DNA of 64,000 bases from Spongospora subterranea f. sp. subterranea (GCA_049724395.1 JAUGWO010000048.1:62001-126000); one strand, 5' to 3'. Numbered from the stretch's first letter, positions 6,706 through 60,330 are shown. Notes: generated from the letters alone by a model not told the origin. Made by a program: numbers and translations.

Positions 6706-7282
6706 ACCCTTACCGATTGTTTTTTCGCAACCGTTGCGAACCCTGATGCAGTGCCTGACGGGCCATTTCCAGGGAGATCAAGCCGCTTTCACAGAGGCTT
6801 GGTCCACCCAAAAATGCAGGCACCGATTATTCGGCCGAGATCTGTGTAGTAGGAAAGGAGCGTTGCACTTTGACGCGAACTCTGTAATTATTTATTAAAC
6901 CCTCTGTGGATAACCCGCCCGTTGGATCATTGTTGATCAACCCCATTGGAGTCATTATAGAACCCCCATTTGAGCCGACTTCGTGACTCAACCCAAAGGG
7001 TTTTATCATTAACTGATGACTCAAACGGGAATTTTATCAATAACGACTCGAATGGGGTTCTATAATGACTCCAATGGGGCTGATGTCGGTTTTATAAATA
7101 ATTACAGAGTTCGCGTCAAAGTGCAACGCTCCTTCCCACTACACAGATCTCGGCCGAATAATCGGTGCCTGCATTTCTGGGTGGACCAAGCCTATGTCAA
7201 AGCGGATTGATCTCCCTGGAAATGGCCCGTCAGGCACTGCATCAGGGGTCGCAACGATTGCGAAAAAACTATCGGAAAGGGT
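6706..7282. repeat. Long inverted repeat (arms about 6706-6901 / 7088-7282) with a nested inner pair (6937-6977 / 7044-7082)
   Basis: The arms are reverse complements with scattered mismatches; the centre has short GACTC...TTTTATCA sub-repeats; no TSD found. Confidence 0.9.
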
Positions 7283-7654
7283 GTACTGGCCAAAACCTGG
7301 AAAAGCTGAACTGCGTCCGGTGTAATATCGAAATTTGCGCGAACTAAAATTTGGCGAAAGGAATACACCTGTTGATGTCCGCATCTCAGTTCTCGTCATG
7401 GTGAAACAATTGGATTGGCAAACGTGCGATTTCGAAGAAAAGGATCTCGCAGTTTTTCACCTGTTAACAGCAGGGAGCATCAGCTGGACAAAGATGGCGT
7501 TCCACTGGCTGTCAGCGATGACTGCAGTTACAGGTTCGCCAGGATGTCGGACATATCGACTTTGATGCAGCGATACAGCCATTAACAATTTCGCTGCACA
7601 AAGTCTAGGAATCTACTTCATCCCCAAACCAACGATATTGCAATTACAGGACGC

Positions 7655-8112
7655 CAGTGTGGAGGGTGCGTTTCTGACGTGGCATAATCGTTTTTCAAAA
7701 ACGGATCGTTGATGACTTCAGCCGTGTACTGCGTTGCCCTTCGATAATGAAATGTCCTCAGGCAGTTTTTTAAGTTCGCCTGGCCCGCACGGCCGCCGCC
7801 AAATCTCGGTGGTCTGGCGGTTTTATCAAAAAATGCGATTTTCCACCGCAACGGCTAATATAAAATCTGGACTCACCAGATTTGGTGATTGGTTATTTTT
7901 TGCGCCAGATCTATCGCCGAGGATTCTGTCTGGCGTCGCTCTTGGTTGGCACATGTCGAATTCGAAAGGAGGTCGTGGTGCCGACCAGGCGAACTTTAAA
8001 CTGCCTGAGGACATTTCAATATCGAAGGGCAACACATTCCAAGGCTGAGGTCATCAAGTATCCGTTTTTGAAAAAACGAATATGTCGCGTCAGAAACGCA
8101 CCTTCCACACTG
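7655..8112. repeat. Diverged inverted repeat (arms about 7655-7800 / 7970-8112)
   Basis: CAGTGTGGAGGGTGCGTTTCTGACG... pairs with ...CGTCAGAAACGCACCTTCCACACTG; the arms encode related peptides NCLRTFHYRRATQYTAEVINDPFLK and NCLRTFQYRRATHSKAEVIKYPFLK. Confidence 0.88.
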
Positions 8113-56915: not shown

Positions 56916-58140
56916 GGGCATCCACAGCGCGGCCGCGGAACGTCCTCTAACCGATATTGGGGGATGCGTCGTCGCTACTCATGAACATCCATAAATTGTT
57001 CTTTCAGACTTTATACGATGACACAGAGCTTGTGGATGCAGTGGTCATGGATTCATCAGCCGATGACGATGTGGCGAGTCAGACCATATTTCATCACGAA
57101 CCTCTGAACGATGATCGCGTAGTTCCTCGTCGGTTCAGGATGCGAAGGGCTCTGTTTTTTGAAACTTGTAACAGGAGTTCCAGGAATCGATCCGTTTTTT
57201 AAACAGAGTGCCGACGTTCTTGCCAAACCTGGACGTCAACGTTGCAAGGGCAACGACAGCATTAGAACATTTCGCATATGTTCAAATCGGGGGAAGCACA
57301 GCTACTCTCTGTGTTGATCGTTTTGTCGATGTACGTTTGGTTTCAACCGTAAGTATCTAATCATAAACTGCAACAGACTGTGGTGCAGACGTTGGGTCCA
57401 GCCATCGCCAACCGCAAGTAATTTGAAGCCCCTGCTTCGGATAAATGCTGCTCGTGGTTTTCCCGGCTGAGTTGGTTCTCTGGAAGTACAAGGTCAGTAG
57501 TGGTGTGCTGCTCGTGAACAAGGATTGAGCATTTGACAGTGACACAAAGGCACAACGATCGCCCTTGAAGCAGCAGTAGACGGAATGGTTTTGGCATGTT
57601 AATGTCGGTGCGCAAGGCTCATCAAATAATATTAATCGTTCTTCAGAGGTCCCATTTGGTACGTCTGAAATACAATGTCACAGGGCGTTTCGGAAATTAA
57701 TAACTTGTTGATGTAGCTTCATGAAACATCATTAATGATCAATTCCCACCAGGCGGCATATACTGTGAACAAACGCCAATACACCATGCGTTATTGGCTA
57801 ATTGTTGATGGGGTTGGTAAGAGGTCTCGACTTCAAAATGCTGTTTTCTCAATGTTTGCAGATCCTCACTGGCCTGTGTTTGTCTAAGAAGCCATAAGAA
57901 AAGGATGTCGAACAAGGCTTTTGCGTGCTCCAGCTTAGTTTCGCTATTATCAAAAATCCATCGCGTAAATGGTCGGCGTCTAAAGTTTACAGTTAAGTGG
58001 TTGTGATAACATTATGTCCTGCTTGTTGAGAAACAAAAAGAGGAATCTTGGAACGACGTCATAACAATTATTCCGCCAAATAGAATGTGGATCCAGTATA
58101 CCAGTACATTGTGAGAGCATGATTCCAAGTGTGCATTTCG
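56916..58140 (+). mobile_element. Degenerate PIF/Harbinger transposon (plant-transposon-protein type DDE transposase)
   Basis: TTA followed by a GGGCATCCACAGCG terminus at 56916; broken motifs RRFRMRRALF, WFWHVNVGAQGSSNNIN and KDVEQGFCVLQLSFAIIKNPSRKW; right TIR not found. Confidence 0.75.
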
Positions 58141-58898
58141 GCATTTCCCTAAGACCAATTCACTTCCCTAAACCCAATTAAATTCCTTAAACCCATTCAC
58201 TTGGTATATCTCGAGTTGAATGTTTTTTTTTGAGGAAGAGTAACACCGAGCACACGCAACCATCGAAACTTGCACCAGACCCGAGCACGCGAACAATGCA
58301 GGCGGTTTGGGAAATGCTGAATCGCTGTAGATCCGGGCTGAAATGCCCTAAATGCGAAATCGCCGGCAAGCTGCAACCCCAGAAGGACGGTGACGACGTC
58401 ATCCTGAGGTGCACATCAGTGCAGGGTGACTTGCACTGCCGCAAGCAAGTCGGCGAACGACAATCGTTGCTGCTCGTTCTATCAACGGACAGCACCCACA
58501 CTAAAAGCGATCGAAGCGATACTTTCGGCTCGACACGCGACGAACGATGACGAACTATCGCAGACCCCATCACTCAAAACACGGCAGGTTTCCTATGCCA
58601 GTTCCGGGACCTGACCTATCCGACACCGAGCCTGTACGAACCTGGACGAACATGGACTGTTGACGCACGTGTTCCCACCTAAATAACGGGCTCATGCCTC
58701 TACTTATTTAATAACTCGACTACTTAGGAGTAATAAATTTTACTTCTGTGACACCGATCAATTCGATACGTGCTCCGTTTCACCGATCAGTTCGGTTCAT
58801 CTCGCTGATCAGTTCGGCCTAACCTCACTGATCATTTCAGTGCAGTAGTAGCATCCCTACCACAGATAGCATCACTATCACCTCTCTATCATTCACAT

Positions 58899-60330
58899 AC
58901 CGGTCAAGGACGACGACACAAAGCCAAAGGTTATCCCATTGGCGACAACTCCGACGAAGGACTCGAATACATCCAGGCATCAGCGGCGCAAGTCATTCTC
59001 GAATCTAACTGACACTTGCCTGTTTATCAACGACAATGGTGCTGATAAATAGGCAAGTGTCATTGTGACTCTTTCTTCTCTACAGTCAAAAGGTAGTAAC
59101 TTGTATGGTTCTGACAATGACATCTGCAATAGGCGGTAAGCCTGATCGTACCAACGTCCTTAACAAGCGGCGACGCCACGATCAGGCTTACCGCCTATTG
59201 CAGATGTCATTGTCAGAACCATACAAGCTACTAACTCTTGACTGTAGAGCAGAAAGAGTCACAATGACACTTACCTATTTATCAGCGCCATTGCCGTTGA
59301 TAAATAGGCAAGTGTCATTGTGACTCTTTCTAAAATTCATGTTGATTAGGAGTTTTAATAAGTGATTGTACCAAGCTAAGCCGGCCTGTTTCAGACCGTA
59401 GATCGCCTTATGGAGCCGACACACGACGTTATCCCCCTCTCTTTCGTCTTCGAATCCAGCGGGTTGTGTGATGTAAAGTTCTGCTTCAAGTTCTGCGTTG
59501 AGGTAGGCAGTATCAATGTCCAGCTGCCGGACCTGCCACCCTTGCGCCCTGAGGCCAATTAGCGTCCTGATAATAGCAGCATTTGCGACCGGTGAAAACG
59601 TCTCGTCATAGTCAACACCAATGCGTTGCGAGAACCCTTTGGCGACTAAGCGTGCCTTATGTCTCTCGATGGTCCCGTCACTGTTCGTCTTGATCTTATA
59701 TACCCATTTCGATTTGATCGCCTTTCGACCTGGTGGGAGCTTGCATAAGGACCACGTGCCATTTGTGGTCAAGGATTCGACCTCTCCCCTCATAGCTTGC
59801 TGCCATTTGCGACTGTCGTGTCGATGAATCGCCTCGTGATAGTTCGCTGGTTCAGTAACTGCGAGCGCCCTGTGTGTCGATCTTTGATGTGCATCCTCTT
59901 GCTCGTGAGATAGTCTTGCAGGTCGTGCTGTTATCCTAGCTGAGGTTCTCTTCAGTCGAGCGGACTCAGTTAGATCCGAGAATGACTTGCGCCGCTGATG
60001 CCTGGATGTATTCGAGTCCTTCGTCGGAGTTGTCGCTAATGGGATAACCTTTGGCTTTGTGTCGTCGTCCTTGACCGGTTGCGGTGTTGTCGTTGGTATA
60101 GCTGGAGAAGTTTGTGGTGATTCCTGTTCGTCTTCTTCGTTGAGGGTCGAGTGGAGTGTCATGCTCTTTCGCGGGAGTAGATGTTCATCGAACGAGACGT
60201 CCCTACCAATGAATAGACGATGTGTGTGCTCCTCGTGTAATTGATATCCCTTTTGATCAGTTGCATATCCTAAAAATAAGCATGTTGTCGCCTTAGGGTC
60301 AAGCTTCCTTCTTAAATGGTGGGGAACGTG
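58899..60330 (-). mobile_element. Ty1/copia pol fragment (integrase C-terminal SH3, linker, 5' part of RT) truncated by fold-back rearrangements
   Basis: RRKLDPKATTCLFLGY...RDVSFDE, EPANYHEA...WQQAMRGE...KWVYKIK...KARLVAKGFSQ...DYDETFSPV...QLDIDTAYLNA...LYGLKQ-like motifs; 58899-59012 is an inverted copy of 59966-60079. Confidence 0.93.
59011..59316. repeat. 139-bp inverted repeat (59011-59149 / 59178-59316) joining copia RT and gag-like pieces
   Basis: Reverse-complement arms with several mismatches and a 28-bp loop; DQAYRLLQMSLSEPYKLL resembles copia gag. Confidence 0.9.

Follow-up and report, generated by a model that had tools for sequence, protein, structure and literature searches.

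The 64-kb window analyzed here (the whole stretch of DNA, 64,000 nucleotides) comes from Spongospora subterranea f. sp. subterranea, a plasmodiophorid related to the clubroot parasite. It raises the question of what produced the inverted repeats that crowd its transposon (TE) debris: assembly errors, the ends of mobile elements, repair, or the deliberate keeping of TE sequence for silencing. We favor, at a probability of about 0.5, the reading that the inverted duplications of repeat DNA are real, that they likely arose singly by fold-back or template switch, and that the transcribed ones are likely sources of hairpin siRNAs.

A fixed scan of the window (arms of at least 30 nt, identity of at least 80%, loop up to 1 kb) gave 18 clusters, which resolved into 16 distinct inverted repeats; order-3 Markov simulations under the same scan gave 0 structures in 12 of 12 runs. 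The 21.4 kb of repeat-supported DNA held 12 of the 16 structures, an unclassified block (5100-8900) held three, and the gene-dense 38.8 kb (61% of the window) held one, a weak one. The skew between repeat and gene blocks had p values of 8e-4 to 8e-6, with block borders drawn after the repeats were seen. The original prediction had listed ten inverted repeats from unrelated sequence classes, all in TE-derived blocks and none in conserved genes. Nine of the ten were strong by alignment, and the tenth, 25925..26019, proved a weak match (20 of 25 columns) that fails the fixed scan and was left uncounted. The location claim was borne out by the 12 repeat-supported structures and lacked support for the unclassified block, with 40259-40367 in gene-dense DNA as the one exception; among the classes, hAT, copia RT and AWS with a weak SET were confirmed, and a USP-like one was not. 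Additional to that list were 20542-20608, 59251-59331, 58899-59012/59966-60079 and 60146-60444. The list had also lacked two weak repeats, 5409-5668 and 40259-40367, along with one long-loop pair (22981-23347/25567-25919) and one pair resembling TIRs (18527-19048).

The unclassified block 5100-8900 had no family match, and a tyrosine-recombinase reading of it was dropped, the resemblance being by eye only. It contains a fold-back at 6706-6895/7094-7282 (arms of about 190 nt, loop 198, 4.8% substitutions), whose loop holds a nested inverted piece of 26 nt and whose right arm is likely the original copy, because the reading frame extends into the right flank. In the fold-back at 7655-7790/7978-8112 (arms of about 136 nt, loop 187, 11.2% diverged), the original sequence is likely the loop plus the right arm, and a USP-like identity was not confirmed. 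A marginal, decayed inverted repeat lies at 5270..5786 (core 5409-5438/5639-5668; score 49 vs. a null maximum of 35). The sole exception, itself weak, to the rule that hairpins lie outside gene-dense DNA is 40259..40367 (arms 36 nt, 86% identity), upstream of a dynein light chain domain.

The history of one structure can be read in a hAT element. A small element with a TIR-like pair (18527..19048; 73/81 nt), which is not a fold-back, received in its right end an internally deleted hAT element (19049..20802, minus strand) with 12-nt TIRs and an 8-bp target-site duplication (TSD); contigs of run X7 show the loose end of the empty site at 19048. The hAT transposase fragment (19633-20436) has a match that carries PF05699 and aligns at 30% identity over 223 aa. 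Within the element is a perfect fold-back, 20299-20388/20432-20521 (arms 90 nt, loop 43, 0% diverged), whose right arm, 20432-20521, fills the deletion joint as an inverted copy. Where intact hAT copies in run X2 contigs have 1152 letters, the window has a filler of 144 nt (20432..20575), made up of 90 nt inverted, 13 nt direct (20365-20377), 7 nt, 33 nt inverted and 1 nt. The 90-nt piece was copied from the left side of the joint and the 33-nt piece from the right, where a fold-back at 20542..20608 (arms 33 nt, loop 1) is found. At the 20576 tip, which a contig loose end precedes, the intact family carries a palindrome of 6 bp, and one with 8-bp arms lies at about 20085, at a second joint. 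Microhomology at the hAT joint was 0-4 nt with an extra T, or 5 nt with an extra A. Near-identical intact copies occur in the genome, and these have no hairpin. At this joint, a single one and itself unbridged, an inverted copy of neighboring sequence replaces deleted DNA.

Inverted repeats of several kinds also occur between 21 and 36 kb. The pair 21476-21514/21541-21580 (arms 39 nt, loop 26, 7.7% diverged) has a paralogue at 30777-30923, a decayed version with the spacer reversed; therefore, an older quasi-palindrome at 21476-21580 was likely inverted and extended. A fresh fold-back set against an unrearranged paralogue was rejected for this pair, as the paralogue has a decayed palindrome, and such remodeling counts against a uniform origin by fresh fold-back. 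The long-loop pair of the AWS/SET-bearing family (22981-23347/25567-25919; arms of 367 and 353 nt with 12% divergence), whose members lie 2.2 kb from each other, may represent two separate insertions and not a fold-back. The fold-back at 23447-23816/24040-24399 (arms 370 and 360 nt, loop 223, 1.7% diverged) has composite arms: the outer part is a high-copy repeat, and the inner part and the loop are reverse-transcriptase-like. This RT-like fragment, a lead only (RVT_1 on 19% of a 0.88 match), bears what we take by eye to be Penelope-type motifs. Depth over the arms was high in presumed-RNA runs and uninformative on the hairpin, because most of it derived from further copies of the family that differ at several letters. 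Run X7, whose RNA label is a guess, gave contigs with 0 differences at depth 4-11 across 23849-24015 in the loop and 24309-24653 at the outer joint.

The fold-back at 26550-26850/26885-27216 (arms 301 and 332 nt, loop 34, 3.7% diverged plus 6 indels) lies just upstream of an AWS-SET fragment whose SET match is weak. A spliced AWS/SET contig of run X3 exits the window at 26472, and the bin 26498-27104 was uncovered in the presumed-RNA runs; an ORF at 26032-26577 had no relatives and is probably a wrong or mixed frame. The most diverged of the strong fold-backs, 33824-33897/33915-33988 (arms 74 nt, loop 17, 16.2%), adjoins a gypsy-like RT relic, has single-copy depth and was bridged whole by short-read contigs of DNA runs X1 and X2. 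In the longest, 34402..35567 (arms 34402-34889/35007-35500, about 490 nt, loop 117, 6.4%), the outer half of each arm is a tandem array with a unit of 56 bp (4.3 and 5.7 units), and the inner half is sequence akin to the AWS/SET family. The bin depth of the 56-bp unit was 81,533 vs. about 24; the unit had no match in the metagenome scan, and neither did the FSAF1 protein.

Templated copies in inverted orientation, four in all and one of them nested, cap the two sides of a copia pol fragment on the minus strand (58899..60444; SH3 and RVT_2 at 59278-60345). The four copies are 59251-59331 (arms 34 nt, the nested one), 59010-59149/59178-59317 (arms 140 nt, loop 28, 5.7%), 58899-59012 (114 nt, copied from 59966-60079) and 60146-60444 (arms 109 nt).

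Divergence between arms ranged from 0 to 16% across the set and was heterogeneous among 13 hairpins (chi2 51, 12 df, p 9e-7), in line with the recurring process that had been proposed from the spread of identity. The differences between arms were mainly substitutions (146 vs. 23 indels in 14 pairs); with 84 transitions and 62 transversions, RIP-like or transition-only decay was ruled out. These differences also bear on the possibility that all the structures are assembly, amplification or long-read fold-back chimeras, an alternative raised in the original prediction. Chimeras from amplification usually carry an inverted copy beyond a short spacer, and the only hairpin with identical arms, 20299-20521, was bridged by no contig of four runs, with 20438-20565 uncovered in all four; such contigs show presence only. 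However, differences between arms, chiefly substitutions, occur in 12 of the 13 strong hairpins, and the gene-dense 61% of the window holds a single weak structure. In the comparison with contigs (four runs, 32 of 3,361 pieces listed, with 6706, 7655 and the copia group outside the compared stretches), inverted joints were also found in other copies, in an X1 contig and at 31811>31220 and 31273>31697 in X1 and X2 contigs. Since the arms differ by 0-16% and 33824-33988 is bridged in both X1 and X2, the set is no artefact, and the chimera explanation for all of it is highly improbable. That 20299-20521 alone is an artefact is more conceivable, though still unlikely. Contigs of the intact hAT family continue through both expected branch points of its joint.

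For the origin of the set, the window offers the duplications themselves, their spread of divergence and one hAT joint whose filler was templated from its two sides. In the proposed mechanism, a DNA end that broke or stalled would fold back or switch template, copy 30-500 neighboring bases in reverse and then be rejoined; such events would occur one at a time and recur, and the hairpins would persist in transposon debris because debris tolerates them. Template-switch repair, which had been named as an alternative to the archive idea, is the best-supported origin, with the 144 nt of mostly templated filler in place of 1152 nt in the hAT element and the capped copia fragment on its side. The ancestral state is directly visible at the hAT joint only. 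Foldback elements have long arms with tandem units, and 34402-35567 has such arms, with an extremely abundant 56-bp unit; 18527-19048 is a true TIR pair, and 22981/25567 may be two insertions. The set might thus be read as foldback-type transposons, MITE TIRs or family members lying head to head, and long inverted repeats described in rice are often adjacent transposons (PMC8728187). We regard this as very unlikely. The arms are internal transposase or RT pieces, continuous with one flank or with the loop, and intact hAT copies have no hairpin. By eye no TSD flanks the hairpins, as the original prediction had held in setting these arms apart from ordinary TIRs, whereas the hAT element has one at its own ends. 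The hAT hairpin and 33824-33988 are not multicopy units, and no direct repeat of arm length was found beside the hairpins.

Yeast is described as forming fold-backs and same-locus inverted insertions at breaks and, as here, these place an inverted adjacent copy at the repair joint with a short spacer and several templated pieces (PMC11724301). The "distant inverted" class reported there, with arms of 50-150 bp and gaps of 2-119 bp, resembles our structures, whereas the local fold-backs, which increase in RPA and rad27 mutants, measure 5-34 bp, compared with arms of up to about 490 bp here (PMC11724301). Unlike those of yeast, the structures in the window are fixed in a natural genome, where repeat-rich DNA holds about one every 2 kb, and they survive up to 16% divergence. 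Template-switch mutations described as making hairpins and new miRNAs also yield paired stems in a single step, although theirs are miRNA-sized (PMC10710096). Small inverted triplications, as described, have an arm and spacer (about 150/30 bp) that overlap the sizes found here, but carry a third, direct copy (PMC13334657), which is absent here except for the 13-nt and nested 34-nt pieces. A literature search revealed no statement on end joining in plasmodiophorids.

Whether these structures could feed silencing may be judged indirectly from the related Plasmodiophora brassicae, which is reported to cut long dsRNA into phased 21-nt siRNAs, with two AGOs and a Drosha-like protein, and has no Dicer, RdRP, PIWI-clade Argonaute or ping-pong signature; its siRNA precursor, or source of dsRNA, is stated as unknown (PMC13547706). 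Our re-analysis used the published phased-siRNA coordinates only (Table S6, PMC13547706). Neighboring phased loci lay no more than 600 bp apart in 87 of 416 cases, with 4.3 expected. Lengths matched within 5% in 20 of the 87 close pairs, compared with 4.1 by permutation and 4.0 by random split, and 20 matched pairs were never reached in 20,000 trials of either null. Of the 13 overlaps between precursors and pairs, six leave the gap unspanned. Six of the seven predicted hairpin precursors spanning such a gap were centered in it, and 68 of 240 hairpin precursors were at least 300 nt long. Orientation is known for seven of the 87 close pairs, and multi-mapped reads would light both arms. From these coordinates, the twin phased loci match what arm-loop-arm hairpins of such a size should leave behind. 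Together with the lack of RdRP in this relative, they lend indirect support to the siRNA role that the original prediction had suggested.

In the window, stems are long and near-perfect enough to give 21-nt duplexes, as in a hairpin siRNA locus: 21-nt windows with at most one mismatch numbered 62-299 in nine of 16 pairs and 0-18 in the other seven, and the oldest strong hairpin had none. No contig spanning arm, loop and arm was found among the listed pieces of the presumed-RNA runs. If transcribed, the window hairpins would likely supply dsRNA for the silencing pathway. Read-through would give hairpin RNA, which a Drosha-like RNase III may cut into phased 21-nt siRNAs; silencing of intact family members would then be a Mu killer-like by-product of ordinary decay, needing no dedicated capture machinery.

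Two other readings of the same hairpins differ in what they ask of silencing. The hairpins could share this origin and be inert, rarely transcribed and of no matter for silencing, with siRNAs coming from convergent transcription. Among arm substitutions, G·U pairing was favored on neither strand (42:42; p 0.31 for heterogeneity), so that selection on RNA pairing was not detected in them, and 62 of 146 substitutions were transversions, as in neutral decay; the lack of a near-perfect window in the oldest strong hairpin fits as well. The 60-300 near-perfect windows that most hairpins retain, and the twin loci and long precursors of P. brassicae, speak against inertness, which we hold to be unlikely, if still a serious contender. 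At the other extreme, fold-backs of transposon coding pieces would be favored or retained as the main anti-TE source of dsRNA where RdRP is lacking. In favor of such a selected archive are the crowding of hairpins, with 21 kb of repeat-supported DNA holding 12 of the 16 structures, their repeated formation over time from several element classes unrelated to one another, the persistence of near-perfect short-loop repeats and a relative without RdRP. Nevertheless, there is no sign of selection on pairing, no common promoter or terminal motif was found, and the arms at 33824 and the outer 34402 array may not be coding. An archive filled by repeated capture, functionally like a piRNA cluster, was what the original prediction had proposed, and it was not supported: the hairpins sit within individual decaying elements, at deletion joints, and fragments lie in both orientations. 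A uni-strand arrangement was not found, as hAT, gypsy-like and copia fragments are on the minus strand, the RT-like fragment is on the plus strand and the SET family is on both. The piRNA clusters are TE-fragment graveyards that yield anti-transposon small RNAs with no need of a hairpin. The window shares with them the graveyard of fragments and the potential for anti-TE small RNAs, but the mixed orientation and a relative without PIWI clade or ping-pong set it apart, and we consider a selected archive improbable. Somewhat less remote, though doubtful, is the broader proposal that plasmodiophorids, without RdRP or Dicer, base TE defence on fold-back scars. When TE copies break, error-prone repair would go on making hairpins from all element classes; these would be the chief source of the phased siRNAs of 21 nt, and of numerous "miRNAs", that the Drosha-like enzyme cuts, with the rate of repair and the retention of hairpins adjusted to serve as an adaptive immune memory.

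The reading of repair scars with a possible second role finds closer parallels elsewhere. Many palindromic siRNA loci of the yeast Naumovozyma castellii are Ty remnants. Palindromic loci are reported to yield 74.1% of siRNA reads in this RdRP-less species, which, like P. brassicae, combines the lack of RdRP with a non-canonical RNase III, and has inverted repeats as chief siRNA precursors (bioRxiv 10.1101/2019.12.12.873604). It differs in that its siRNA output was measured, its lineage is unrelated and its enzyme is a yeast Dicer and not Drosha-like. The set is best read as repair scars that likely serve a second time as sources of hairpin siRNA, much as palindromic loci do in N. castellii. 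In maize, Mu killer and composite insertions of Ac are likewise described as inverted transposase-coding duplications in a broken element with intact relatives; unlike ours, they are kb-long, include TIRs, are transposase-driven, and are transcribed and silence in trans with RdRP-aided methylation (PMC3440606; bioRxiv 10.1101/2020.01.07.897926). The hairpins described here are shorter and come from many classes, retroelements included. An inverted coding duplication of the Mu killer type, in a family with intact members, is found in the hAT transposase arm and in the copia RT/SH3 arms.

The 2026 account of P. brassicae RNAi gives no origin for the siRNA precursors. Dense TE fold-backs are a concrete candidate, and the published locus table of that species already has the expected twin footprint. 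If the origin alone holds, the window documents long fold-back repair at an unusually high frequency. If the whole reading is true, many annotated "miRNAs" would become long-hairpin siRNAs, plasmodiophorids would form a convergent parallel to the RdRP-less budding yeasts, and, in a eukaryotic supergroup that has received very little study, genome defence would be tied to a repair signature.

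The fold-back duplications in the window are real and recurrent. A fixed scan revealed 18 clusters, corresponding to 16 distinct structures, and simulations gave 0 each (n = 12). Of the ten inverted repeats listed in the original prediction, nine were strong, and 25925-26019 was dropped (20 of 25 matches). All had been assigned to transposon-derived blocks; this held for 12 of the 16 structures, located in 21.4 kb for which read depth and Pfam RT point to repeats (the block borders being drawn after the repeats were seen), while three were in the unclassified block 5100-8900 and a weak one was in the gene-dense 38.8 kb. 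The pair at 18527-19048, included in the 16, is ordinary and TIR-like. The block 5100-8900 is decayed and coding-like, with three inverted repeats, and the search for a family match to it found none.

Among the element classes named earlier, hAT and copia (SH3/RVT_2) were recovered, as was an AWS domain (4.9e-8) with SET at only 0.009; the USP-like class was not. A gypsy-like RT near 33824 scored below the cut-off. The RT-like fragment in 23447-24399 has, by eye, what we take to be Penelope-type motifs; further comparison gave only a lead. The AWS/SET-like fragment (25640-26472) showed 0-1 differences from a 1596-nt contig of X3, a run guessed to be RNA; the contig omits a 54-nt GT-AG intron (26151-26204), and its placed part excludes its first 817 nt. 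Relatives of this fragment recur, scrambled, at 22340-23347 and 34028-35567. A 56-bp tandem unit (34409-34648, 35250-35567, and 22340-22510), with a summed depth of 81,533 in the DNA run X1 versus ~24 for unique DNA, is a very abundant satellite or subterminal repeat linked to the SET-bearing family. Another tandem repeat, of 49 bp (31335-31582; 5.1 copies, 100% identity), is a very recent expansion or an assembly slip.

The window DNA is that of a compact eukaryote genome with introns. Its eIF4A3 exon (51433-51840) shared 96% identity with the protein of Plasmodiophora brassicae, against 87% or less for every other full-length match listed, which identifies the host as a plasmodiophorid. The GC content was ~46%; values of 45.7% for Spongospora subterranea (review PMC12883290) and 59% for P. 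brassicae (PMC13547706, Table S4) are given. We therefore treat the genome as one of the Spongospora or Polymyxa type. Host genes at 40278-52400 and 61991-62443 were dynein light chain, cyclic-nucleotide-binding ion-channel pieces, eIF4A3, and FSAF1. A cluster of secreted-looking proteins (9281-16950) comprised an ankyrin-repeat protein, a long Pro/Gln-rich protein, and a GH19 chitinase with a Ser/Pro-rich linker. A dispersed direct repeat (135 nt, 77% identity) was found in two gene regions, at 44914-45047 and 62949-63084.

The hAT element at 19049-20802 (TIRs of 12 nt, target duplication of 8 bp) holds the one joint whose ancestral state was seen directly. Between 20431 and 20576, intact copies have 1152 letters versus 144 in the window. 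This filler consists of a 90-nt inverted copy taken from the left, a 13-nt direct copy of 20365-20377, 7 nt, and a 33-nt inverted copy taken from the right, the last with a 1-nt loop at a site that is a 6-bp palindrome in the family; fold-back thus seems to have occurred on both sides of the deletion. At 20576-20690, two letters separate the family contigs from the window, and the 20542-20608 hairpin likewise has two mismatches (only counts were compared). The hAT is inserted into the right end of a small TIR-bearing element (18527-20810), whose interior is FAR1/MULE-like by eye and had no Pfam match. A copia fragment was capped on both sides: one carries an inverted copy of 109 nt, and the other a nested hairpin of 34 nt overlain by a copy of 140 nt, plus a copy of 114 nt whose source lies 800 nt off; a small degenerate hairpin (60444-60489; 10-nt arms, inner palindrome) adjoins the right-hand fold-back. 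At 6706-7282 and 7655-8112, the reading frame continues, by eye, along the right arm and into its flank, which makes the left arms the apparent copies. The paralogue of the 21476-21580 hairpin carries a decayed palindrome whose spacer is in the opposite orientation, which points to a template switch at an older quasi-palindrome. This hairpin is contained in a 711-nt insertion (21037-21747; joint in X1 and X2), related to 30777-30923 and without counterpart in other copies of the surrounding repeat. Microhomology was ambiguous at the sole measurable joint (hAT). Fold-back and template-switch synthesis has been shown in yeast (PMC11724301), and the window joints fit it, with longer arms.

Arm divergence ranged from 0 to 16% and was heterogeneous among hairpins (p = 9e-7), consistent with repeated events; gene conversion between arms could blur the ages. 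That the hairpins are artefacts is highly improbable. The perfect hAT hairpin 20299-20521 would favor this, as no contig in four runs covered 20438-20565 when tested directly, and intact-family contigs pass through both expected branch points; this hairpin may be young, lost by the assembler, or an artefact. However, 146 substitutions and 23 indel events were counted over 14 arm pairs, where a chimera should have identical arms, and 33824-33988 was spanned whole by contigs of the DNA runs X1 (33664-34499; no other letters, 1 gap) and X2 (33612-34498; 1 other letter, 1 gap). The bridging check covered two of the nine strong listed hairpins, one bridged and one not. The outer-left joint of the 34402-35567 hairpin was also covered by bridging contigs from both runs. 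X1 may be the source data of the window, given its close match; X2 comes from another study. Both runs also show an inverted joint missing from the window (31811>31220 and 31273>31697, at equal depth), read as a single contig; its templated piece of 54 nt and 10 additional letters are absent from the window, and it is another copy or allele bearing its own fold-back. In another hAT copy, an 85-nt X1 contig joins 20083-20106, reverse-complemented, to 20332.

We consider it about even (roughly 50%) that the fold-backs are by-products likely to act as sources of hairpin siRNA, by analogy with the systems described below. That they are inert scars is rather unlikely. A selected archive is less probable still: pairing selected on one strand should make transitions favor G·U on that strand, but transitions split 42:42 without heterogeneity among hairpins (p = 0.31), 62 of the arm substitutions were transversions, and this low-power test gave no sign of stem upkeep. 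Neither dedicated capture nor the likeness to a piRNA cluster proposed originally is supported: the fragments lie in both orientations within single decaying elements, and no shared terminal motif was found among the fold-backs. Mobile foldback units or paired insertions are very unlikely. Taking by-product sources, scars, and archive together, an origin in ordinary error-prone repair or replication is highly probable.

The reading as by-product siRNA sources draws on the relative P. brassicae, which has 21-nt phased small RNAs, two AGOs outside the PIWI clade, and a Drosha-like enzyme; the part of the description available to us reports no Dicer and no RdRP, states the source of siRNA precursors as unknown, and presents a single palindromic region, described as a miRNA locus, never using the term "inverted repeat" (PMC13547706). 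We re-analyzed the coordinates of all 435 phased loci (Table S6) and 240 precursors from its supplement. Phased neighbors were at most 600 bp apart in 87 of 416 pairs (median gap 159), where a uniform spread would give 4.3. Lengths in these close pairs were equal within 5% in 20 of 87 (4.1 by permutation, 4.0 by random split of one locus) and within 10% in 23 of 87 (130-593 nt; 8.3 and 8.2), and none of the 20,000 trials of each kind attained these counts; among pairs >2 kb apart, 21 of 306 were equal within 10%. Matched neighbors flank gaps of 10-400 nt. Of 13 precursor-pair overlaps, seven span the gap (six centered there) and six do not. The median precursor length was 210 nt, with 68 of 240 at least 300 nt long, and many annotated miRNA precursors were 300-1000 nt. 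This twin-locus layout is the footprint expected of arm-loop-arm hairpins, which the original prediction had put forward as a test, and is of the same size class as in the window (arms 33-490, loops 1-223), although it comes from another species and coordinates alone, orientation is known for few pairs, and multi-mapping lights both arms. The matched loci suggest long hairpins as siRNA precursors.

The nearest system in function is Naumovozyma castellii, which lacks RdRP and in which palindromic loci account for 74.1% of the siRNA reads (bioRxiv 2019.12.12.873604); siRNA output was measured there, whereas the window hairpins are known from sequence. Mu killer (PMC3440606) and Ac composite insertions (bioRxiv 10.1101/2020.01.07.897926) follow. 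The nearest in origin are yeast fold-back insertions, template-switch hairpins (PMC10710096), and small inverted triplications (PMC13334657), which carry a third copy that the window fold-backs lack. Our search of mostly open literature, preprint supplements aside, with term look-ups in PMC6823432 and a 2026 pangenome preprint, found no publication that reports nuclear fold-backs within transposons of plasmodiophorids or identifies them as the dsRNA source. The fold-backs make the stated open question of P. brassicae siRNA precursors directly testable with public data.
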